In this document: one piece after another, positions 35,377 through 64,000 of the stretch
Position numbering within the stretch: position 1 is the stretch's first letter
How the letters are laid out: each line of letters starts with the position of its first letter
DNA from: Candidatus Omnitrophota bacterium
GTDB taxonomy: Bacteria; Omnitrophota; Gorgyraeia; Gygaellales; Profunditerraquicolaceae
Assembly: GCA_028716245.1 (NCBI GenBank)
Contig: JAQUQW010000001.1
Span: 388,322 to 452,321, forward strand
Length of the DNA: 64,000 nt
Direction of reading: 5' to 3'
Position numbers and translations under genes: made by a program
The notes under the pieces: model-generated
What the model was told of the DNA's origin: nothing
The model's database searches: none
Seen by the model: the letters and a program-made list of their open reading frames with translations, nothing else

Positions 35377-36924
35377 ATGTTAAATCTTGCCTTTATCTTT
35401 CATATGCACCAGCCGTATTATAAGGACCTCTTAACGCAAGAGAGTGATCTTCCCTGGGTCAGGTTACACGGCGTTAAGGATTACCTGGATATGGTACAGA
35501 TCCTGGAAAAATTCCCTAAGATCAAACAAACCTTTAATGTTGTGCCGTCTTTATTCGAGCAGGTCGAAGATTATAATAATGGAAAAGTAAGCGATAAATA
35601 TCTTGAGTTAAGTAAAAAACCGGCAGCGGAATTATCCAAACATGATCAGGAATTTGTCCTGCAGAATTTCTTTTCCATAAACAACGAAAAAGTGATCTCC
35701 ACTTTTCCGCGTTATTACCAACTCCACTTCAAAAAACACCATCGCCTGGAATTCTTGACCCAGGATTACCTGGACTTGCAGCTTTTGTTTAATCTGGCCT
35801 GGATCGATCCGTCTTTCCGGCAGAATATCCCTGAACTTAAAAAAATAGTCTTAAAGGAAAGATTCTTTAATGAACAGGATAAGGCAACTGTCCTGGATAA
35901 ACAGTTAAGCATCTTAAAAGAAATTATCCCTGCCTACTGCCTTTTTAAACAGAATAACCAGATTGAGATCAGCGTTACTCCTTATTATCATCCCATCTTG
36001 CCGCTTCTTTGCTCGACGAACACCGCCAAAGAAGCAAACCATAAAACAATCTTGCCCAAAGAAGAGTTTCGCTATCCGCAAGACGCAAAAGATCAAATTG
36101 ACAGCGCAGTAAAATATTATCGGGAGAGGTTTGGCTGTCCGCCGCACGGTATGTGGCCGTCGGAAGAAGGAGTAAGCGAAGAGATCCTGCCGTTTATTAT
36201 TAAATCCGGGATAAAGTGGGTAGTTACCGACGAGGCAATTTTATTTAAATCTTTAAAGATAAAAAAACGTGACACTAAGCTCCTTTATCAGCCTCACCTG
36301 TTAAAAAGGAAGGAGGGGGAGCTGAATATTGTTTTTCGCGACCGCAACCTCTCGGATTTAATCGGTTTCTCTTATCACAAGATGAAAGAAACTGAGGCGG
36401 TAAATAACTTTATGGCGCATTTGGAAAATATCCACAAAACCTTCAAAAACAAGGATATCCTGGTAACCGTAGCCATGGACGGAGAAAACGCCTGGGAATA
36501 TTTCCGCAATGACGGCCATGATTTCCTGGAATTATTTTATAAACATCTATCCGAAGCGCCTTTTGTAAAAACTACCACCGTCAGCGAATATTTAAAAAAT
36601 AACCCGCCGGAAAAATCAGAAATAAAACACTTAAGCGCGGGCAGCTGGATCTATGGAGAATTCGGCAAATGGATCGGCAGCCCCTATAAAGTAAAAGCCT
36701 GGGAGTGGCTGACGCAGGCGCGCAAAGCAATAAAAGAAACTAAAGAACCAGGCGAGCTGGCCTGGAAGCAAATGTATATCTTAGAGGGCAGTGATTGGTT
36801 CTGGTGGGCAGGAGAAGACCCGGATGGCTCATTTGACCGGCTGTTCAGGCTGCACCTGACTAACTTTTATAAGCTAATTGACAAAGAGCCGCCGGCATAT
36901 CTCTCCAAGCCCTTAACCCCTTGA
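35377..36924 (+). CDS. glycoside hydrolase family 57 (alpha-glucan branching/amylase type)
   Basis: GH57 N-terminal signature FHMHQPYY and a typical 515-aa length. Confidence 0.85.
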   Translation: MLNLAFIFHMHQPYYKDLLTQESDLPWVRLHGVKDYLDMVQILEKFPKIKQTFNVVPSLFEQVEDYNNGKVSDKYLELSKKPAAELSKHDQEFVLQNFFSINNEKVISTFPRYYQLHFKKHHRLEFLTQDYLDLQLLFNLAWIDPSFRQNIPELKKIVLKERFFNEQDKATVLDKQLSILKEIIPAYCLFKQNNQIEISVTPYYHPILPLLCSTNTAKEANHKTILPKEEFRYPQDAKDQIDSAVKYYRERFGCPPHGMWPSEEGVSEEILPFIIKSGIKWVVTDEAILFKSLKIKKRDTKLLYQPHLLKRKEGELNIVFRDRNLSDLIGFSYHKMKETEAVNNFMAHLENIHKTFKNKDILVTVAMDGENAWEYFRNDGHDFLELFYKHLSEAPFVKTTTVSEYLKNNPPEKSEIKHLSAGSWIYGEFGKWIGSPYKVKAWEWLTQARKAIKETKEPGELAWKQMYILEGSDWFWWAGEDPDGSFDRLFRLHLTNFYKLIDKEPPAYLSKPLTP

Positions 36925-37547: not shown

Positions 37548-38642
37548 ATGCGCATAATTTCAATTGCTAATCAAAAAGGCGGCTGCGGCAAAACAACTAC
37601 ATCCATAAATTTAGCTGCCTCACTGGCATCCAATAGCCGCCGCGTCCTGCTTATTGATCTTGACCCGCAAGCCCATGCCACCAGCGGCTTAAACATCAAA
37701 GCGGAATTAAGTATCTACAATGTCCTTTCTAAAATCACGCATAAAAAAGCAAGGATTGACGAAATTATCCAGAACATCGGAGTTAATTTTGATATCGCCC
37801 CATCTTCGATTATTTTAAGCACGCTGGAACAGGAGTTAAGCGGTGAAATCGGAAGAGAGAGCCGCCTTTGGGATATCTTAAAAAGTTTTCAGAACAACTA
37901 CGATTACATTTTAATCGATTGCCCTCCAAACCTGGGGATCCTGACCATTAACGCCTTGCGGGCGGCAAACGAAATTATTATTCCGGTTGAAGCCAGCAGG
38001 TTCTCCTTAGAAGGGGTAAGCCAGTTAACCAGCATTATTAACCTGGTCAAAGAAAGGTTAAACCATAGCGTGGATTTCCGGATCCTGGTAACCAACTTTG
38101 ATTCCCGGCTGCAGCATTCGTTTAAAATGCTTGAGAAAATCAAGACTGACTACAAAAACAGAATGTTCTCTAACATTATCCACGTGAATGTAAAATTAAA
38201 GGAAGCCCAAAACGAAGGCCTGCATATACATGTTTACGATAAATACTGCCGGGGGGCAAAAGATTATTTCTCGCTTTCCCGTGAAATTATCACCCAGGAA
38301 AATACGCCTCCTGCGCCTGTTCCGCCAACAGAAAAAAACCTGGAAAAACGCATGCAAGATATCCTTAAGGAGAACCTGCCAAAATTAAATGAAACTGTTC
38401 TTTCGGTTAAAGCTCCTGATGCAAAAGAAGTTTATTTGGCGGGAGAATTCAACAACTGGAAGCTTGATGAACACAGCCGCATGGAGCAGAATAACGGCTG
38501 TTGGACCAAACACCTGGCCTTAAATAAGGGTAAATACCGTTACCGTTTCGTAATCGATGGAAATTGGGCCGAAGACCCGGAGAACCCATCAAGGCAAATG
38601 AATGCTTACGGCACCATGGATTCGTTGATTGAAATTAATTAG
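37548..38642 (+). CDS. ParA/MinD-family ATPase fused to a C-terminal CBM48 (AMPK-beta glycogen-binding) domain
   Basis: Deviant Walker A KGGCGKTTT and ParA body (about 250 aa), a Pro-rich linker, then CBM48 signature VYLAGEFNNWK...GKYRYRFVIDGNWAEDPENP. Confidence 0.75.
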   Translation: MRIISIANQKGGCGKTTTSINLAASLASNSRRVLLIDLDPQAHATSGLNIKAELSIYNVLSKITHKKARIDEIIQNIGVNFDIAPSSIILSTLEQELSGEIGRESRLWDILKSFQNNYDYILIDCPPNLGILTINALRAANEIIIPVEASRFSLEGVSQLTSIINLVKERLNHSVDFRILVTNFDSRLQHSFKMLEKIKTDYKNRMFSNIIHVNVKLKEAQNEGLHIHVYDKYCRGAKDYFSLSREIITQENTPPAPVPPTEKNLEKRMQDILKENLPKLNETVLSVKAPDAKEVYLAGEFNNWKLDEHSRMEQNNGCWTKHLALNKGKYRYRFVIDGNWAEDPENPSRQMNAYGTMDSLIEIN

Positions 38643-53272: not shown

Positions 53273-53821
53273 TTACGCGGATTTTTCTAAGTCAATCGTG
53301 CGGGTATCGCCGTGGATTGCCATTGATTCAACCTTGCTTAGCTTCGACATCCTCTCCATAACGTCGCGGATTTTTTGAAAATTATTATGCATAGTCTCAA
53401 TCCTATTGCGGGTCTTTTCGTTTAGTTCAATATGTTTAAGTTCGAGTTCAAGCAACTCAAGGTTTCCGCTAATAGCCAAAAGCGGATTATTCACCTGGTC
53501 CCCTAAAGCAAGCGCGGTTTCGGTAATTGCCGCCAGGCGGCTCTTTTCAATCAATTCCTGCTGCATAAGCAGGATCTTACGGTTATCGTCGATTAATTTA
53601 AAAATTACCGACATCAGCATCCTTCTGCCGACGACAATCCCCATAATAAAAACGCCGATGGTCGCCAACACAATATAGCCGGCCTCTGCGGCTAAAAGAT
53701 TAAAATTAGCAAACTTATCCACGATCAAATAGATAAATACCAAGAGAGGAATAATACCGACAAGGCTTAATGCGCGGTTAAAATCTTTTTTGATATTATA
53801 GGTGAATTGTCTTACTTCCAT
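53273..53821 (-). CDS. 2-TM protein with a degenerate HisKA-like dimerisation domain (no phosphoacceptor His, no ATPase domain)
   Basis: Two N-terminal TMs, then a coiled coil and H-box-like LALGDQVNNPLLAISGNLELLE with D/Q where His is expected. Confidence 0.4.
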   Translation of the reverse strand: MEVRQFTYNIKKDFNRALSLVGIIPLLVFIYLIVDKFANFNLLAAEAGYIVLATIGVFIMGIVVGRRMLMSVIFKLIDDNRKILLMQQELIEKSRLAAITETALALGDQVNNPLLAISGNLELLELELKHIELNEKTRNRIETMHNNFQKIRDVMERMSKLSKVESMAIHGDTRTIDLEKSA

Positions 53822-55766: not shown

Positions 55767-56114
55767 TTAAGGCAAGAGCTTGCTTATATAGCGGGCGATC
55801 TTTTTACGCTGTTCATCGCGCATTTCGTTAAAAAATATGGCCAGGTTAAATCCGCCGTTGGCTTCATCCTCAGTCCTTACCACCACCCCCCGGCATTCAA
55901 CAATCGTGCCTTTACCGGGCTGGTCCTTATCAGGCAGGCTCAACTTTACGGAAATCTTGGTAAACGGCGGCATATATTTATCCAAGTGGCAATAAGCGCC
56001 CACGCAGCTGATATTACGCGTTGAGGTGGAAAAATGATAACCGTCTACCGCCAGATTAAGCGGTAACTTCTGGTCTAATCGCGGATGTAACCTGCGTTCC
56101 TTGATACTTTTCAT
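55767..56114 (-). CDS. PilZ-domain protein
   Basis: RRLHPR (RxxxR) and NISCVGA (DxSxxG-like) motifs. Confidence 0.6.
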   Translation of the reverse strand: MKSIKERRLHPRLDQKLPLNLAVDGYHFSTSTRNISCVGAYCHLDKYMPPFTKISVKLSLPDKDQPGKGTIVECRGVVVRTEDEANGGFNLAIFFNEMRDEQRKKIARYISKLLP

Positions 56115-56302
56115 TATTTTTTCTCTTCTGCCTTTGATTTTTTAATAAATTCCCGCCAGCATTTCTTGCTGCAGTAGTATTTACCGTTTCGGTAATACCT
56201 TTTCAGCTTCTTAACCACTTTATTACAAGCCAGGCAATTAACGCGTTTATCCGCCTTGGGCTTTGCTTCTGCTTCTTTTACTTTGGGTGCTTCCGGTGCC
56301 AT
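56114..56302 (-). CDS. small zinc-ribbon protein (CxxC...CxxC), lysine-rich
   Basis: 62 aa; NCLACNK ... YCSKKCW; overlaps the PilZ start by 1 nt. Confidence 0.5.
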   Translation of the reverse strand: MAPEAPKVKEAEAKPKADKRVNCLACNKVVKKLKRYYRNGKYYCSKKCWREFIKKSKAEEKK

Positions 56303-56324: not shown

Positions 56325-56690
56325 TTAAATTTGCCCAAGTTGCATATTGATAAAATCTTTAAGGTATATTTGTTCGTGCAGATTAAACTCGACAAACTCT
56401 ATACCCATTTGATTGCGATTAGAATGCGACAGGGGCGTTGACCAGGCTATTTTACCAACAGGCCTGAGTACGCGGTTTAAAACATTAATTTCAAGCATTA
56501 CCGCGGTAGAAGTGGGAACAAACCTGTCGTTAGTAAACCTTAAACCGCCGCAGCTTATGTCATTAGTGAGAGCGCTATTAAAATCCGGCTTGCCTCTGAT
56601 CTGATACTGTATCTTTGAATGAAAATCTATCCGGGGAAAACAACGATTTTCTTTCTGTCTTGCCAAAAACACCATAAAAAAATATAACAC
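56325..56690 (-). CDS. PilZ-domain protein
   Basis: RCFPR and DISCGG motifs; the true start may be Met6 (56675), which coincides with the predicted TSS. Confidence 0.6.
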   Translation of the reverse strand: MLYFFMVFLARQKENRCFPRIDFHSKIQYQIRGKPDFNSALTNDISCGGLRFTNDRFVPTSTAVMLEINVLNRVLRPVGKIAWSTPLSHSNRNQMGIEFVEFNLHEQIYLKDFINMQLGQI

Positions 56691-57478: not shown

Positions 57479-57799
57479 ATGAATAAAATCTGCATTATTC
57501 TGCTGTTTATCGCCTTAAATCTCTTAGTTACCAATACTCCTGCCAAAGCAAACAATGATAATTCAAATCAACAAAAACCTCCTAGCGGCATGGAAATTAT
57601 AACTGTCGGAGATGGTCAACAGTTAATTCTCCCTAAAGGGACAAAGATGCGTAAAATAGGCGCCCAATTAATTATTGAGGACAATGCCGAATACGTATCG
57701 GAACGAATTTGGGATTTAGAGAAGCGCATAAAGAGATTGGAATCAGCCAATGAAGAACTTAAAAAACAGATACAGGAATTGAAAAATCCAGCCCCCTAA
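57479..57799 (+). CDS. secreted coiled-coil protein, hypothetical
   Basis: Signal peptide; C-terminal heptad-repeat segment (RIWDLEKRIKRLESANEELKKQIQELK). Confidence 0.5.
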   Translation: MNKICIILLFIALNLLVTNTPAKANNDNSNQQKPPSGMEIITVGDGQQLILPKGTKMRKIGAQLIIEDNAEYVSERIWDLEKRIKRLESANEELKKQIQELKNPAP

Positions 57800-58275
57800 G
57801 GTGCTTTACCTGCTTTTGTCGCCTTTTTTAACACAGAAACCCTGCTTAACTCAGAATCTATATTTTTGTTCAATTCGCTAAAATCGCTCCTTAATCTTTC
57901 TTTACAAACTTTCGTCTTAGGCTCAAGCGTTTGTGTTACTGCATCCAAACTCTTAATATTCAATTCGCTTGTGCTCTTGATTATCTTGAGCCAATTAATC
58001 AGATAATTGACAGCATCTTCATTGGGGATTTTTACACTGTTAAAAATCCCTACCATATAAAAATAAGCATCCAGCTGCATCATCGTCATAACAGAAGAAT
58101 CCCACATACTGCTCATCAAGACTATATCTTTTGACTGTAGGAACAAGGCTTTTATCTGTTTTGATTCCAAGGATATTTTATTACGCATTTCAAAAAGACC
58201 ATTCTCCAAAGCATAGCTGCGAACACTAAAAAATATAAATAAAATCAACAAAATTGAAATTTTCTTTTTCATCAC
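57796..58275 (-). CDS. secreted hypothetical protein, last gene of the pseudopilin operon
   Basis: Signal peptide; 159 aa; starts just downstream of the GspM-like gene. Confidence 0.4.
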   Translation of the reverse strand: MMKKKISILLILFIFFSVRSYALENGLFEMRNKISLESKQIKALFLQSKDIVLMSSMWDSSVMTMMQLDAYFYMVGIFNSVKIPNEDAVNYLINWLKIIKSTSELNIKSLDAVTQTLEPKTKVCKERLRSDFSELNKNIDSELSRVSVLKKATKAGKAP

Positions 58276-58312: not shown

Positions 58313-58870
58313 CTAAAGAGTAATTATTTTAGAGATAACCATACTGCAGATTGCTACACTGGATTCTTTAGCCTTTGGGCTGATCTGGCATTTTTCAATG
58401 GTTAAAAGCTCCTTAGAGTTTTCTATATTATACATGAAGCGGATTAATTGCTCCATCTGTGCTTCGCAGTTTAAATTTATCAAATATTTTTTTGATGCCC
58501 CTGTTTCTTTCATACTTGCAGGCTTCATGTCAACTAAATAAACCGAAGCTTTATCAGCGTAATTTTCAATCTCTTTCATTAAAGAAGCCGCCTGGTCTTC
58601 GCCGGATTCAGGAGTATTTAAGAAAGAGCTATATCTGGCATTTTCAGCTAAAATCCTATCCTTCTGAGCTAATATGCGTAAATTCTTCTTAACCTCCGAT
58701 TCTTTCAATCGAATCTCTTTATCCAGGGATTTCATCCTAGAAAATACCGGAGATATTATTAAACGGTCCAAAACCACTAAAGAGATAAAGAAAATCACAA
58801 CATAAAGAATAAATTTTTCTTTTTTAGGTAAACGCGTAAAAGCTGCATAAAGGGACGGGGCCTTAAACAT
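58313..58870 (-). CDS. gspM: GspM/PilO-like bitopic inner-membrane protein
   Basis: Short cytoplasmic N-terminus, one TM, coiled coil plus periplasmic domain; follows the GspL-like gene. Confidence 0.5.
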   Translation of the reverse strand: MFKAPSLYAAFTRLPKKEKFILYVVIFFISLVVLDRLIISPVFSRMKSLDKEIRLKESEVKKNLRILAQKDRILAENARYSSFLNTPESGEDQAASLMKEIENYADKASVYLVDMKPASMKETGASKKYLINLNCEAQMEQLIRFMYNIENSKELLTIEKCQISPKAKESSVAICSMVISKIITL

Positions 58871-58876
58871 CCTATT

Positions 58877-60358
58877 TTATCTAGCCTCCTTATTCAACAA
58901 AGCAGTTATTTCAAAATCTGTCAGATCCTTATAACCATCTTTTCTTTTTGTAGTATATTTAGTTTTAACATCTTGAAAATATTTTAATTTTTTCATGCTG
59001 TCAACGAATGAAAAAACTATGGACATCGACTCTGCGGTGCCCCTGACGGAAAATTTATCCTGCTCATCAAAACGAATATCATTTAGTTCTAAATCCAAGG
59101 GGCTGATATTGTGTAATTCGGTTAATGCCTCCAAGAAGAAACCGCGGCTGGATAGATAATTCCTTACTGTTTTTACCTTTAAAGATTCCTTTTCTAATTT
59201 TTGCGACTCTTGATCTAGTGTTTGATATTTATTACTTAACTCCTTAAGATATACGCTCTTAAAATAAATCTTGCTTAGCAATATAAAGAATAATAAAATA
59301 AAAATCGTAAGCGTAAAGACCCCTATCTTTATCAGGTCATTGCCTCTTTCCTCAAGCGACCTCTTTATTTTTATCTCCTCAGGGATAAAGCTGACCCGCA
59401 TCTCTTCCAAGCTAAATAAAGGGGCAATTACATTTAGGAATGACGAATATCTGGTCTTAAACGCTGCCTTCAAGGGCTCATCCGGAATTATCAAATTACT
59501 CAAATAGGCTACTATCTTGACGGATAAATGCAAGTTATTATTTAAAATAGTCTCTACGTCTTTTAATTCTTCTATGGCGCCGGTCAAAAAGAGCGTTTTA
59601 GGATAACTCTCGATCTCCTCGGCCTGATAGGCCTCTAAAGACCTCTTTATTTCTTCTATAAATTTCACCACAAACTTTTCCTTTTCATCCAAAAGGCTGC
59701 GGGCGCCGATAGGAATGCTCCTTATGAATAAAACTTTACTTTTAAAAACAATGGAAAAATCTGTGCAGCTTTCATCGATATGGAGAATGCCTACCGGTGC
59801 GTTTTCAGTTTCAATTTTTAATATTCTAGAGATAGACCGGGCAAGCCCCTCAGGGGCAAGAAACACATTTGTTAATTTAAGCCCGGCTTTTTCCAGTATT
59901 TCAAATTGCCTTTTTATGACATTGCGCGCAACAATCACCAAAAGAATCTTGGTATAAGTATGTTTATAAGTGCATATATCAATATAATCACTGATTATTT
60001 CTTCCCGGGAATACGGAGTATGCCGGGGCGCCTGTAAATCTATGATCTTCTTTATGACACCGTGGTCGATAGATGGTATCTCGATATTTTTAGTCAAGAT
60101 CAAATGTGACGCAACGGTATTGACAATATTGGCATCTTTTACCGTTAAATTATTAAAACAAGCACGGATGACTTTAGAAATTTCGGCATCAGGCAGGCCG
60201 GTAATATCGCAGCTTTTGATATTAACTATCTTTCTTTTATTAGCAAGGCCTCTGGCGTGGACAAGCTTTAAAGTATTGGAACTAAAATCTATCCCGACAA
60301 AATCCCGTTTGCCGTTATCAGCCAAAAATTTTAATCTTCCGATATTCATTCCCAACAT
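58877..60358 (-). CDS. gspL: GspL-like protein (PilM-like actin-fold cytoplasmic domain, TM, PilN-like periplasmic domain)
   Basis: 493 aa; single TM near residue 350 (IKIGVFTLTIFILLFFILL) followed by a coiled coil. Confidence 0.6.
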   Translation of the reverse strand: MLGMNIGRLKFLADNGKRDFVGIDFSSNTLKLVHARGLANKRKIVNIKSCDITGLPDAEISKVIRACFNNLTVKDANIVNTVASHLILTKNIEIPSIDHGVIKKIIDLQAPRHTPYSREEIISDYIDICTYKHTYTKILLVIVARNVIKRQFEILEKAGLKLTNVFLAPEGLARSISRILKIETENAPVGILHIDESCTDFSIVFKSKVLFIRSIPIGARSLLDEKEKFVVKFIEEIKRSLEAYQAEEIESYPKTLFLTGAIEELKDVETILNNNLHLSVKIVAYLSNLIIPDEPLKAAFKTRYSSFLNVIAPLFSLEEMRVSFIPEEIKIKRSLEERGNDLIKIGVFTLTIFILLFFILLSKIYFKSVYLKELSNKYQTLDQESQKLEKESLKVKTVRNYLSSRGFFLEALTELHNISPLDLELNDIRFDEQDKFSVRGTAESMSIVFSFVDSMKKLKYFQDVKTKYTTKRKDGYKDLTDFEITALLNKEAR

Positions 60359-60361
60359 ACC

Positions 60362-61366
60362 TTAAGACTCCCGCCAATATAGTATATTTCCGTTACGGTT
60401 AATCACGCAAATCAATTCCACGGTATCTACTCTGTTGTTTAATTTAGCAGACGCCTTGATCATAAAATTTTTAGAATTTGCAACCAAGTATTGGTCAACT
60501 ACCGCACTAAGCTCTGCCAGCTCAGAAACACTCAGATGATAAGACTGGCTAAGTTTTGGGATTATATTAGCAGTTGTATCGAAAATTTTATCGTCGGCAG
60601 TAGCCATAACCCCATCTTCACCTGCCCTAAAAGACATAATATCACCTGCAATATTATCATCTAAGCCTAAAGCCAGAAGCACCGGCCTTGAAGCAGTATT
60701 GATATTAACCCTGCCGCTGCTATAAATAGTAACATAATCCTTGATTTTTTCAAAGATATCCTTGTTCATCCCTTTAACCAGAAGAATTTCATCCAGAACT
60801 TCAAAATCCTGGTTCCTTGCTTCATAAGGATATTGCATGCTTCTGTAATCAAAATTCTCGGCACTGCCCAAAGGTATTGATAATTGGCTATCGCTGTCCC
60901 TCCAGTCAATTATGCAAGCCGCCAGCTCCTGAGCGCCTGTTTCATCCAGACCAGCGACAATCTGAAAAAGATGCTTAAGCACCGGCATCCCTGCTTTATT
61001 AATATTTATTTTTCTTTCTTCATCAACCAGCCCATACCGGGTTTGGCAAATTCCTGATTTCTCGTCTATATAACCATATGAAATATCGACCTCGCCATCG
61101 CCTATAGCCATCCCTTTAAAGGCGCCAAGATTATTGCTCCAGGTATCCCCTAAAGCATCATAAGGCTTCTCTTCTTCTTTTTTCAATTCCACGATTGCTT
61201 TCATTACCGCAGCCTGGGCAATAAAATGTAATTTGCTTTTTTCATCCAGCCTTTGGGCTAAGGTTAATTTCTGCCTGACTTGATATCCTAAAACCACGCT
61301 AAAAATAGTTAACAGGCAAACCGTCCACAAAGAGATAAACAATATGCTGCCGCCTTTAGTCTGCAC
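60362..61366 (-). CDS. gspK: GspK-like minor pseudopilin
   Basis: Hydrophobic N-terminal helix without the conserved Glu5, large periplasmic domain; 334 aa; follows gspJ. Confidence 0.6.
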   Translation of the reverse strand: MQTKGGSILFISLWTVCLLTIFSVVLGYQVRQKLTLAQRLDEKSKLHFIAQAAVMKAIVELKKEEEKPYDALGDTWSNNLGAFKGMAIGDGEVDISYGYIDEKSGICQTRYGLVDEERKININKAGMPVLKHLFQIVAGLDETGAQELAACIIDWRDSDSQLSIPLGSAENFDYRSMQYPYEARNQDFEVLDEILLVKGMNKDIFEKIKDYVTIYSSGRVNINTASRPVLLALGLDDNIAGDIMSFRAGEDGVMATADDKIFDTTANIIPKLSQSYHLSVSELAELSAVVDQYLVANSKNFMIKASAKLNNRVDTVELICVINRNGNILYWRES

Positions 61367-61392
61367 GCTGGCCTTTTAAATAATCCATTAAA

Positions 61393-61980
61393 TTAATTGC
61401 TAACCGGAATACTGACCGTTTTAACAAACTCACTGCTTTGCCTGCCCTGGCCTAAACTCAACTCTACCCTTACCGCCAAAGGCAACCCATCTTTTGACCA
61501 CTCATCAAGCCAAAGATACTCTTTTATCCCTTGGTCATAGAAATAATATTGGAATCTCAATGATTCCACATTCCTTACTAATTGTTGAGTTAGGCCTGCG
61601 CTGCCCTCGTAAATTTGGCTATAATCCAAAGAAGATCTGCTTATTATCCTTGACTCCGGATCATAAAGATAGATAACTTTGCCTACCGTATTCTTCTGCA
61701 TTCTCTGGCTATCTACAAGAGTAATGAATTCAACCTGTTTTTCTTTCCCTGAGAAATTGTACCCGCTGAATTTAAAAGCATTTCTTAAATCTAAAACAAA
61801 CTTCTCAAAGAAAATATCCAAATCCTCTTCAACTGCCTGCTCATTTATTTTCTGCCAAATTTTTATACCATTGTTAAAAGTGGCATATATTGCCAGGGAT
61901 ACAACGGCTAAAAGCGCCGTAACAATAAGCAATTCAACCAGGGTAAAAGCTTCTTTATTCCTTCTTCTTATACTCTGCAT
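61393..61980 (-). CDS. gspJ: GspJ-like minor pseudopilin (prepilin-type N-terminus)
   Basis: KEA-FTLVELLIVTALLAVV class-III signal with Glu5; start set to the internal Met (MQSIRRRNKEAFTLVEL) rather than the track start 62058. Confidence 0.55.
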   Translation of the reverse strand: MQSIRRRNKEAFTLVELLIVTALLAVVSLAIYATFNNGIKIWQKINEQAVEEDLDIFFEKFVLDLRNAFKFSGYNFSGKEKQVEFITLVDSQRMQKNTVGKVIYLYDPESRIISRSSLDYSQIYEGSAGLTQQLVRNVESLRFQYYFYDQGIKEYLWLDEWSKDGLPLAVRVELSLGQGRQSSEFVKTVSIPVSN

Positions 61981-62344
61981 ATGCGCTTCTTGATAGCCCC
62001 GCTTTTCTTTGGCCTTGTTGCCAATAAAGATCCAGGTCGATTTTGTATAAACCACCATCGATCAAGCTGTAATTTAGGCCCCAGCTAAAAGTCTTACCCG
62101 ACTTTTGAAATTCACCTGTTGTTTGCAGCTGGGCCAAAGCGCCAAACTTATTCAAACCATCCTGCGCCTGCCAAAGCTGTTCATCCATCCACGGAATAAG
62201 GTTGAGATAATTGGTGTAACGGTTAAAGGCATCTAAGGAAGTAAAAAATGCCCCATATATCAGAACAGTCCCCAGAGACAAAACCACTGTGGTAACCATT
62301 ACCTCTATAAGGGTAAACCCTTTATTCCCAATTTTTAACGTCAT
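61955..62344 (-). CDS. gspI: GspI-like minor pseudopilin
   Basis: KG-FTLIEVMVTTVVLSLG prepilin signal; start ambiguous (62344, 62365 or 62389). Confidence 0.55.
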   Translation of the reverse strand: MTLKIGNKGFTLIEVMVTTVVLSLGTVLIYGAFFTSLDAFNRYTNYLNLIPWMDEQLWQAQDGLNKFGALAQLQTTGEFQKSGKTFSWGLNYSLIDGGLYKIDLDLYWQQGQRKAGLSRSAYAEYKKKE

Positions 62345-63083
62345 CCTCGGTTCCTTCTTGGCCATCCCTTCCCAATGAATACAGATCATAATCGGCCCGA
62401 TGGTTACCCGGTGATTTATATTTATACTCTCTTCCCCAGGGGTCCAGGGGCTGCTTCTCTAAATAAGGGCCGTTCCATTTTCGGCTGGAAGCCGGCTTAT
62501 TCAACAAAGCATTTAAACCTTCTTCGGTGGTAGGAAAAATACCATTATCTAACTCGTAAAGTTTTAAAGCAGTGGCAATATTGGCGCGGATATCGGCTTC
62601 GGCGGTAGCCACGCGTGCCTGCTCGGTCCTTCCGGTAAGCCGAGGCATTACCATTGCGACCAAGGCTCCAATGATTATAACCACCAGCATCAGTTCAATC
62701 AGAGTAAAACCCTTAGGCGCCGTTACTTTTTCAATAGCCGATATGACCGTATCTATTTCTACCGGTTTAGTGATATAATCCAGTACCCCTAACTCATAAG
62801 CCTTAAGCTTATCTGCGTCCTTACTCAAAGCAGAAAGAATTATTATGGGGGTTTTACTGCCCACAGGATCACTGTTGAGCAGCTGGCAGGCATCCATACC
62901 TCCTATATCCGGCATAAGCAAATCAAGCAATAAACAATCGGGCTTATATTTATCTACTTGCGCGACAATATCTTTAGCGTTGGATAAAGCAATCACTTCA
63001 TAACCTTTACCTTCCAGGTTCAGTTGCAATATTCTCAAGAAATCTACCTCATCGTCAACCAGCATTATCTTCTTTTTCTTCAT
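62322..63083 (-). CDS. gspG: response-regulator receiver (REC) domain fused in frame to the major pseudopilin GspG
   Basis: Residues 1-120 are a complete REC (DD at 11-12, phospho-Asp in LLLDLLMPD, ILSALS, ITKP Lys), followed directly by TAPKG-FTLIELMLVVIIIGALVA (prepilin cleavage/methylation signal) and a GspG body with C-terminal Ca-binding loop DYDLYSLGRDGQEGTEDDV; no internal start or SD before the pilin part. Confidence 0.8.
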   Translation of the reverse strand: MKKKKIMLVDDEVDFLRILQLNLEGKGYEVIALSNAKDIVAQVDKYKPDCLLLDLLMPDIGGMDACQLLNSDPVGSKTPIIILSALSKDADKLKAYELGVLDYITKPVEIDTVISAIEKVTAPKGFTLIELMLVVIIIGALVAMVMPRLTGRTEQARVATAEADIRANIATALKLYELDNGIFPTTEEGLNALLNKPASSRKWNGPYLEKQPLDPWGREYKYKSPGNHRADYDLYSLGRDGQEGTEDDVKNWE

Positions 63084-64000
63084 GTTGTCCTTTCCTCCCC
63101 TATCTTAAAACTAAGAACCGCCTTAGTAAACTTGCCTTCCTGGCTAACTATATCAATGACCCCTCTATGCATCAGCATAATATTACGCGTAACTGACAGG
63201 CCTAAACCCAGTCCTTTATTGGGGCCTTTGGTGGTAAAAAAGGGCAGAAAAAGCTTATCCGTATTCTCTTTAGAAATACCTGTCCCTGTATCTTCTATTT
63301 CTACAATCAGGGCCTCTTCCCCTAAGGCAAACATATCGCTTTTTCTCTTGCCCACTCCATTTTTTATTTCATCGAGTTTTTTTGAATAAACGCGGATAAA
63401 GATCTTGCCGCCACCCGGCATTGCTTCAATGGCATTTAATAAGATATTCACCAGCGCCTGTTCAATTTTTTGCCGGTCAACAAAGATTTTAGGTAAATCT
63501 GCCTGGAATTGCCTGCTGATTTCAATATTACCCAGCTTAATTTTATGCTCAACCAGGACCAAAGAACTTTCTAATATAGATTCTATACTCTCATTTTGCT
63601 TGGATAACTCTGTTTTTCGGGAAAAACTAAATATTCCATCAATAATATTGTCGCTTCTTTTGACATTATCCTTAATCATATTCAAGGTATCAGAAATATT
63701 CCGAGGGCAAGGCTTAAGCTTGCCTTCTAAAAAATTCACCCCCTGCAAAATTACAGCTAAAGGATTCCTTATTTCATGGGCCACACCGCTGGCCAAAACA
63801 CCTACCGCGGCTAATTTTTCCGAATCCATCAACTCTGTCTGGACCTTATGTAATTCTACATAGGCCCTCTTTAGCTCCTCCGCCTTTTGCTGGCGTTCGG
63901 TAACATCCCGGCTAATGTGGACAAATTCATTAATCTGGTTTTTTTCATCCACAAGAGGATAAACGCTTACTTCAAAAAATCTTGGGTGGTTATTATTATC
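63080..64000 (-). CDS. PAS-domain sensor histidine kinase (HisKA + HATPase_c), 5'-partial
   Basis: H-box HEIRNPL, N/G1/F/G2 boxes (LLNAIEAM, EDTGTGI, GLGLGLS); the frame stays open beyond position 64000 with PAS-like sequence; its TGA overlaps the ATG of the REC-GspG gene (ATGA). Confidence 0.8.
   Translation of the reverse strand, partial: DNNNHPRFFEVSVYPLVDEKNQINEFVHISRDVTERQQKAEELKRAYVELHKVQTELMDSEKLAAVGVLASGVAHEIRNPLAVILQGVNFLEGKLKPCPRNISDTLNMIKDNVKRSDNIIDGIFSFSRKTELSKQNESIESILESSLVLVEHKIKLGNIEISRQFQADLPKIFVDRQKIEQALVNILLNAIEAMPGGGKIFIRVYSKKLDEIKNGVGKRKSDMFALGEEALIVEIEDTGTGISKENTDKLFLPFFTTKGPNKGLGLGLSVTRNIMLMHRGVIDIVSQEGKFTKAVLSFKIGEERTT

Follow-up and report, generated by a model that had tools for sequence, protein, structure and literature searches.

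A 64,000-nucleotide (nt) stretch of a Candidatus Omnitrophota genome (assembly GCA_028716245.1, contig JAQUQW010000001.1, positions 388,322–452,321; hereafter the window, whose own numbering is used throughout) was analysed for a gene near its end that very probably encodes a real, functional fusion of a response-regulator receiver (REC) domain to the major pseudopilin GspG. The gene lay on the minus strand at 62322–63083 (ORF list, Pfam, NCBIfam) and was, as the original prediction from the DNA letters had it, a single open reading frame (ORF) of 253 residues without a stop between the REC and pilin parts. Pfam divided the protein into Response_reg (residues 6–117, E 3.4e-25), N_methyl (124–146) and T2SSG (149–252, E 7e-36). 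The junction read ...IEKVTAPKG125|F126TLIE130LMLVVIIIG, with Gly-1, Phe+1 and Glu+5 all there, and four residues led from the end of REC (residue 117) to the prepilin cleavage/methylation signal. In an AlphaFold2 model, REC took up residues 1–121, its helix alpha5 spanned 110–121, and a coil at 122–127 held the cleavage site and was followed by the pilin alpha1N helix and head. A Foldseek comparison with solved structures found none in which REC and pilin folds shared one chain.

The REC domain (residues 6–117; 62733–63068, minus strand; Pfam PF00072) scored 88.8 bits against a gathering cut-off of 30.2, and its phospho-acceptor Asp54 was encoded at 62922–62924. The catalytic set D10, D11, D54, S84, Y103 and K106-P107 was conserved in all nine REC::GspG homologues. 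The domain was modelled as a (beta-alpha)5 fold with a predicted local distance difference test (pLDDT) score of 84–94, and it superposed in Foldseek on the single-domain regulator RR468 with a template-modelling (TM) score of 0.94 and a root-mean-square deviation of 1.2 Å. Pfam and alignment agreed that it is a canonical receiver with every phospho-acceptor residue, the conserved Asp included, as had been claimed. Its closest kin were stand-alone Omnitrophota regulators of 125–131 residues, at 53–70% identity for fused RECs in general and 64–70% for those of the window's own fusion group, designated group (a). The fusion point fell almost exactly at the natural C-terminus of these stand-alone relatives. 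Compared with the consensus of 118 such relatives, the replacements K27G, I50C, E64D, V101L, A120V and L121T were present in all seven group (a) fused RECs and K116A in six of the seven. Positions 116, 120 and 121 sit in helix alpha5, beside the junction, a hint that these substitutions may be an adaptation to the fused state. Descent of the fused REC from a relocated stand-alone REC gene of the operon, the one in the gap between the MshEN and gspE genes of locus L010, was ruled out: the two shared 34% identity only, REC genes had no fixed position in related operons, and many canonical operons had none.

The pilin half opened with a class III (prepilin) signal, K124-G125|F126-T-L-I-E130, and a hydrophobic alpha1N helix (62646–62714, minus strand; Pfam N_methyl 1.9e-05), the hydrophobic stretch after the cleavage point reading F126TLIE130LMLVVIIIGALVAMVM. 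The predicted scissile bond lay between the Gly codon at 62709–62711 and the Phe codon at 62706–62708, and in the solved pseudopilus 5wda the residue aligned with F126 is the first of the mature subunit. The GspG globular head (residues 149–252; 62328–62639, minus strand; Pfam T2SSG, PF08334) ended in an acidic loop, in which D231, D233, D240, D247 and D248 were invariant and aligned with the C-terminal loop of solved GspG; on these conserved acidic residues it is named a putative calcium loop. The NCBIfam equivalog for gspG, TIGR01710, scored 151.9 bits against a cut-off of 88.85 and was matched over its full length (model positions 1–134 of 134 on residues 124–253). Unfused, short-leader GspG proteins of Omnitrophota, encoded in the same operon slot, were 86–89% identical to the pilin half. 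N_methyl, T2SSG and TIGR01710 were thus all above their thresholds, so the intact prepilin signal and GspG body of the original prediction stood, and the REC, N_methyl and T2SSG profile searches by which it had proposed to be checked were all positive with Pfam and NCBIfam.

The leader was of another kind. It comprised 125 residues folding as REC, not the short N-terminal hydrophilic leader by which class III signals are recognised. Leaders of related unfused GspG proteins were about 4–34 residues long. In a set of 79 related GspG ORFs no leader could be longer than 66 residues, and most no longer than 34, except in the fusions, with 119–246. G125, F126 and E130 were invariant in all fusion groups while residues -2 to -5 varied. 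It is this invariance beside a drifting linker that argues for retained cleavage, and G125|F126 is probably a site at which the protein is cut.

The same fusion was seen in some groundwater Omnitrophota and recurred across many independent metagenomes. Logan contig L001, the product of a separate assembly, carried an identical gene. An orthologue with 85% identity (P0004) lay in the same operon setting on 12 contigs, which came from different projects and assemblers and from samples in NCBI, ENA and Logan, and further copies were found in the Hainich groundwater assemblies L097 and L172. The window gene and that of L005 differed at 150 nt, without an indel or a stop, and Nei-Gojobori ratios of nonsynonymous to synonymous substitution (dN/dS) were 0.064 for REC, 0.095 for the junction and 0.069 for the pilin. 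Such low ratios throughout, together with the lack of any indel, indicated that both halves are translated and constrained in one frame. Group (a) has kept the fusion over a synonymous divergence (dS) of more than 1. The original prediction had left two points to be checked here, a possible frameshift at the junction and the existence of homologues: the junction was the same in the independent assembly and free of indels amid the 150 substitutions, and homologues with the same fusion were found, some of them well outside group (a).

These more distant fusions fell into group (b) (P0005/P0006, L177; 60–62% identity) and group (c) (P0011/P0028, L002/L180; 45–48% identity), and in both the REC and pilin-signal residues were all conserved. 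The RECs of group (a) were only 38–40% identical to the RECs of other fusion groups. Group (a) pilin halves were 78–83% identical to those of other fusions, less than to unfused GspG. The canonical GspG P0394, with an 8-residue leader, shared a 90% cluster with a group (c) fusion, and the pilin half of P0095, a REC+PilZ::GspG protein, was 97.7% identical to the unfused P0083. Because unfused relatives are closer to each half than the other fusions are, the architecture appears to have arisen independently at least three times, which in turn points to one that is tolerated or advantageous. P0095 itself (group (d); L009, 2022–3149) was 375 residues long and present on two contigs. A PilZ::GspG protein, P0064 (277 residues), was present on one contig.

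In other relatives the same parts were separate genes. A REC gene lay 62–86 nt upstream of a normal gspG in L136, L139 and L161, and in L099 a separate gene for the same PilZ as in P0064 ended 4 nt before a normal gspG (about 1530–1960). A kinase and a stand-alone REC, 65% identical to the fused REC, were appended after gspM in L092, and a kinase-REC pair was free-standing in L012. These are plausible precursor layouts of the fusion, and taken together the free-standing, appended and upstream arrangements link a signalling module to this machine. The fusion is thus rare and has been derived repeatedly, in a clade where signalling domains are often joined to the machine.

A REC-profile scan of GTDB species-representative contigs returned no fusion, only free-standing kinase-REC pairs (L012, L013). 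A search of the representatives with the whole protein was swamped by multi-REC proteins and gave no reliable count of REC::pilin fusions. A junction-centred profile search listed not even the known fusions and was uninformative on their number; it did expose a truncated NCBI record, P0399. Five unrelated proteins turned up in the representative search (P0122, P0199, P0210, P0140 and P0249), from other lineages of higher GC content: proteins with two tandem GspG heads per chain and, in P0249, an N-terminal DUF4190 membrane domain joined to a GspG head.

Directly upstream of the fusion gene, the window contained the C-terminal 306 residues of a sensor histidine kinase (63080–64000, minus strand), with the end of a PAS domain, a HisKA domain (1.7e-08; H-box AHEIRNPL) and HATPase_c (2.1e-17). 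Its frame was open to position 64000, so the gene runs past the window end. The kinase stop TGA overlapped the ATG of REC::gspG (ATGA, 63080–63083), as had been read originally, and a strong Shine-Dalgarno sequence, GGGGAGGAAAGG, lay 5 nt before that ATG within the 3' end of the kinase gene (63089–63100, minus strand; sequence reading). Translation of the fusion is, in this lineage, coupled to that of an upstream histidine kinase of the bifunctional type. The kinase had been described as PAS/HisKA/HATPase; HisKA and HATPase_c were found, and PAS was a fragment in the window and complete in the orthologues L005 and L178. These full-length kinases, of 642 (L005, 72% identity) and 636 residues (L178), had about five to six predicted N-terminal transmembrane helices followed by PAS, HisKA and HATPase; in the L005 kinase a hydropathy scan gave short loops between the helices. 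Membership of the PilS family was unsupported by sequence: the best NCBIfam matches were AtoS/ZraS-like and far under their cut-offs, and the likeness was in topology only. The group (c) kinase had just two transmembrane helices and a HisKA subfamily different from that of the group (a) kinase. In group (b) the REC::GspG gene (L177, 5302–6075) followed directly after gspF in an operon without a histidine kinase, leaving an orphan receiver on the pilin. The unit therefore does not everywhere include the kinase.

The genes after the fusion, all on the minus strand, encoded the other parts of a pseudopilus. The first (61955–62344) specified a GspI/H-like minor pseudopilin of 129 residues with the leader MTLKIGNKG|FTLIE (N_methyl 8.1e-07, TIGR02532; orthologues L004, L178), and the second (61393–61980) a GspJ-like minor pseudopilin of 195 residues (Pfam T2SSJ 9.9e-08 and N_methyl). 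Their likely starts, 62344 and 61980, were taken from the orthologues; with these, the gspI-like gene overlaps gspG by 23 nt and gspJ overlaps by 26 nt. A GspK-like minor pseudopilin followed (60362–61366; Pfam T2SSK_1st 6.6e-15; NF037980 at 89.4 bits, under the cut-off of 130), then a 493-residue PilM-PilN fusion protein of the assembly platform, which fills the role of GspL (58877–60358; Pfam PilM_2 3.1e-14, PilN 4.9e-06), and a GspM/PilO-like protein (58313–58870; Pfam T2SSM_b 8.9e-06; NF040576 at 53.9 bits against a cut-off of 60). Last came a 159-residue protein with a signal peptide and no Pfam match (57796–58275), which also stood after gspM in the related operons L004, L007, L010 (69% identity) and L179. 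A convergent ORF of 106 residues, coiled-coil-like and of no family (57479–57799, plus strand), was conserved after gspM in the same four. Scans with Rfam and for promoters and terminators gave nothing relevant near the operon.

The slot of the fusion ahead of the minor pseudopilins was that of unfused gspG in L010 and at least 30 other loci. A scan of the window for another pilin found none besides those of the operon, so the fusion fills its only major-pilin slot. The reading of the unit as a pseudopilus operon therefore held. The predicted order gspI-J-K-L-M was borne out in Pfam for the J-, K- and M-like genes; the supposed GspL proved to be the PilM-PilN fusion, and GspI was recognised by its N_methyl signal only.

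Among relatives whose upstream region is available, the closest was L178 (92% group), where the order was MshEN, GspE::PilZ, GspF, a secreted Peptidase_MA_2-like protein, the 636-residue kinase and REC::GspG, and the genes beyond position 64000 of the window probably resemble it. A search for gspD, E, F, C and O upstream had been proposed; by way of the orthologous operons, the GspE ATPase and GspF were found, outside the window and upstream, in L005, L178, L177 and L180, and D, C and O were not. The secretin GspD and GspC were absent from the Pfam families of the operons and of their flanks up to 10 kb (L010, L178, L180), and nothing secretin-like occurred among the window ORFs examined; secretin and GspC could be encoded elsewhere in the genome. 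The assignment to type II secretion therefore held for GspE and GspF in relatives and failed for the secretin, GspC and the prepilin peptidase; the role of GspL is taken by PilM-PilN, a component like that of type IV pili. Because the tests for secretin and GspC failed in the available sequence and PilM-PilN is used, the system is labelled like a type II secretion system (T2SS), and T2SS-like type 4 filament machine is a safer name than T2SS.

Across 36 related operons the core MshEN-GspE-GspF-peptidase-GspG-...-GspK-PilMN was constant. The peptidase of this core, a secreted HExxH protein of Peptidase_MA_2-like type without an NCBIfam family, lay between gspF and gspG in nearly all of them (L005, 2495–3346; L010, 8700–9635; L178, 4646–5434). 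Its counterpart probably lies just past window position 64000, and a role as substrate of the machine or as an accessory to it is possible. The GspE ATPase carried a C-terminal PilZ in addition to an N-terminal MshEN domain in L010 (5286–7433), L177 (1929–4070) and L178 (1215–3377), and in each of these three a separate MshEN-only gene preceded it.

About 2 kb downstream of the pseudopilus operon, two single-domain PilZ ORFs flanked a 62-residue Cys-rich ORF (55767–56114, 56114–56302 and 56325–56690, minus strand); the PilZ ORFs are predicted to be further signalling parts of cyclic di-GMP (c-di-GMP) type near the machine. At 53273–53821 (minus strand) a 182-residue membrane protein had a HisKA domain without an ATPase domain. 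Farther away, an ORF at 37548–38642 (plus strand) combined a ParA/MinD-type ATPase with a C-terminal glycogen-binding CBM48/AMPK1_CBM domain, an unusual pairing, and the ORF beside it (35377–36924, plus strand) was, by the look of its N-terminus, a candidate glycoside-hydrolase-like protein.

A hydrophobic alpha1N helix inserts into the membrane with its N-terminus in and its C-terminus out, and a pilin with Gly-1, Phe+1 and Glu+5 needs to be cut by an A24 peptidase before it can polymerise. The leader of an inserted prepilin is on the cytoplasmic side, cleavage by the peptidase behind Gly-1 takes place at the cytoplasmic face of the membrane, and uncut subunits do not polymerise (PMC10191384). 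That the main subunit carries REC in place of a short leader suggests that the direct target of a two-component system is the subunit protein rather than its gene. We propose that REC would sit on the cytoplasmic face, against the inner membrane, where the neighbouring membrane kinase would phosphorylate Asp54. Removal of REC at G125|F126 would precede entry of the subunit into the filament, as it must for assembly if only peptidase-cut subunits polymerise. The phospho-state of REC would gate processing and assembly of the prepilin, by permitting them or by setting their rate; gating is suggested because alpha5, part of the phospho-responsive surface of REC, ends only four residues ahead of the scissile bond. 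The two-component system would then act after translation, by licensing the subunit pool, and not through transcription. That the N-terminal domain is folded is no barrier in principle, since a pilin with an engineered N-terminal T18 domain was processed unless its cleavage site was mutated (PMC7196804). To the whole chain, with phosphorylation of Asp54 by the kinase, cleavage and gating taken together, we give a probability of roughly 0.4. A slightly more tentative form is that each event of phosphorylation-gated maturation would also free one REC, which could report pilin flux to the motor ATPase.

Several points weigh against this proposal. Between the folded REC and the scissile bond there are only four residues, perhaps too few for an A24 peptidase to act at all, and for such a peptidase there was neither a motif in the window nor a gene in any related operon examined. 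Group (b) has the fusion and no adjacent kinase. The close unfused relatives P0394 and P0083 indicate that REC is dispensable for pilin function as such, and the remainder of the genome could hold another gspG. Cleavage, phosphotransfer and the link between them are all inferred from sequence. The mechanisms suggested originally, control of pilin processing or assembly and liberation of a signalling domain by maturation, agree with the conserved Gly-1, Phe+1 and Glu+5 and with the expected membrane topology.

The competing explanation that survived best keeps the cleavage and drops the gating: REC would be cut off constitutively and act as a free regulator, e.g. on the GspE ATPase, the fusion being a means of one-to-one, membrane-proximal co-production by which REC reports pilin flux. 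It accords with the nearness of the fused REC to abundant stand-alone regulators, with a fusion point at about their natural C-terminus, and with the 36-operon survey, in which stand-alone REC genes stood at several, shifting positions in about one third of the operons; fusion and fission also appear frequent and recent. However, it leaves unexplained why the architecture recurs and why it persists in group (a) over so long a synonymous divergence, it is at odds with the replacement of seven consensus positions in the group (a) RECs, three of them in alpha5 beside the junction, and it too depends on the predicted cleavage. We regard it as unlikely, though a serious competitor.

Clearly less probable is an uncleaved REC::GspG that stays in the inner membrane, where it would act on the platform (PilM-PilN, GspF, GspE) or block assembly while another pilin builds the filament. 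The very short linker may bar access of the peptidase, no peptidase is encoded nearby, and some Omnitrophota contigs do carry two T2SS-like operons (in tandem in the metagenome contig L126). Against it, Gly-1, Phe+1 and Glu+5 stay invariant while the adjacent linker residues drift. Its pilin head is as constrained, by the dN/dS of 0.069, as bona fide major pseudopilins and closely similar to them, and the operon offers no second major-pilin slot.

It is also conceivable that a normal short-leader GspG is made from a start within the ORF (ATT at Ile117 or ATG at Met132), with the REC product minor or irrelevant, and public annotation is written in this way. The NCBI record MDD5466091.1 (GspG, 137 residues) starts at Ile117, its ATT read as Met, and MDD5477071.1 (GspG, 122 residues) starts at Met132 in the transmembrane helix, so that the cleavage site is lost. 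Both records leave the REC half unannotated, and the full-length fusion was unnamed in every source. These look like start choices forced by the family model. ATT is, however, a very rare initiator; the equivalent Ile is ATC in group (c), and its place in helix alpha5 calls for a hydrophobic residue in any case. A start at Met132 would remove Glu+5 along with the cleavage site. No ATG, GTG or TTG occurred within 38–40 codons upstream of Gly-1 in the window and in L178 (38 codons in the window), and in the window copy the 90 nt ahead of F126 were free of any Shine-Dalgarno-like core, whereas unfused gspG genes carry clear GGAGG sites; the earlier statement that the REC-pilin passage lacks an internal start codon and ribosome-binding site was therefore upheld. 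The REC dN/dS of 0.064 likewise indicates that REC is translated and selected. Internal initiation is thus very improbable overall and was rejected for group (a), where, judging from the codons and spacing, a normal GspG is almost certainly not made in this manner. It is a real possibility only for P0095 of group (d), which keeps AAGGAG and an ATG six codons before Gly-1. Weakest of all is an artefact, in which a frameshift, a lost stop or a chimeric assembly merged two neighbouring genes: separate REC-gspG and PilZ-gspG gene pairs are known in relatives and the one contig with PilZ::GspG P0064 is only 1.8 kb long, but for group (a) this is effectively refuted by the independent copies (L001 and the 12 contigs), by purifying selection at a junction without indels, and by deeper homologues (60% and 45% identity) that stay in frame.

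With its gene truncated in NCBI records, the architecture has been invisible in public annotation, and domain-architecture surveys built on those records will miss the fusion. No description of a fusion of REC to a pilin, pseudopilin or prepilin was found in the literature, whose coverage was incomplete, so that this is absence of evidence only; the suggestion that the system may be undescribed was supported by this and by a full-length protein that is nameless in the sources. The novelty lies in the output of the response regulator and in the kind of leader on the prepilin, within a recurrent, previously unannotated architecture. With it, a membrane-inserted structural protein joins the known outputs of receivers. 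The architecture also puts to the test the assumption that class III leaders are short and unstructured, and raises the question of whether A24 peptidases can cope with a folded domain only four residues away from their cleavage point. The recurrent fusions of REC, PilZ and REC+PilZ to GspG suggest a general tendency of Omnitrophota to wire signalling onto this machine.

Type 4 filament machines (type IV pili, T2SS and competence pili) are regulated through transcription of the pilin gene (PilS-PilR) or through signalling proteins and c-di-GMP receptors that act on the ATPases. A REC built into the prepilin would add a third control point, the subunit itself at maturation, and, if the proposal is true, a two-component system would have proteolytic licensing of a filament subunit as its output. 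Nearest to it in logic are two systems in which a membrane kinase and the pilin pool of the inner membrane communicate, with a separate regulator and a pilin of short leader. The PilS-PilR/PilA system of Pseudomonas aeruginosa resembles it in that one two-component system is devoted to providing a type 4 filament with its major subunit. Its unusual kinase, PilS, spans the membrane six times and touches the pilin there (PMC6058289). The orthologous kinase of L005 is similar in predicted topology, with about five to six transmembrane helices, short loops, PAS, HisKA and HATPase. PilR, however, is a separate sigma-54 activator, whereas the fusion system has no DNA-binding output and its receiver is covalently part of the prepilin. 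In Caulobacter PilA-PleC-PleD, a pilin monomer in the inner membrane likewise belongs to a phosphorelay (PMC7196804), but there the pilin has a 14-residue leader and is the input ligand for the kinase, while the REC::GspG precursor itself carries the phospho-acceptor domain.

PilG and PilH are single-domain response regulators acting on type 4 filament motors. Together with MshEN and PilZ on MshE, GspE or PilB, they share with the present system the post-translational control of a machine by small signalling domains, and the related operons also carry an MshEN gene, GspE::PilZ and often stand-alone REC genes; these known domains are free or fused to the ATPase, and none is fused to a filament subunit. 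Long-leader prepilins, such as type IVb pilins and PilE of Streptococcus sanguinis, also have a variable cytoplasmic leader that is removed after Gly or Ala, and modular pilins can bear grafted domains (PMC10191384). The known long leaders are short hydrophilic peptides and the known grafts are adhesive domains displayed on the filament, whereas the leader here is a folded cytoplasmic signalling domain of 121 residues. The nearest match in layout is artificial: in the T18/T25-pilin fusions engineered for two-hybrid assays, a folded cytoplasmic domain stands N-terminal to the prepilin and membrane insertion is tolerated (PMC7196804). Those constructs have longer linkers, and REC::GspG is natural.

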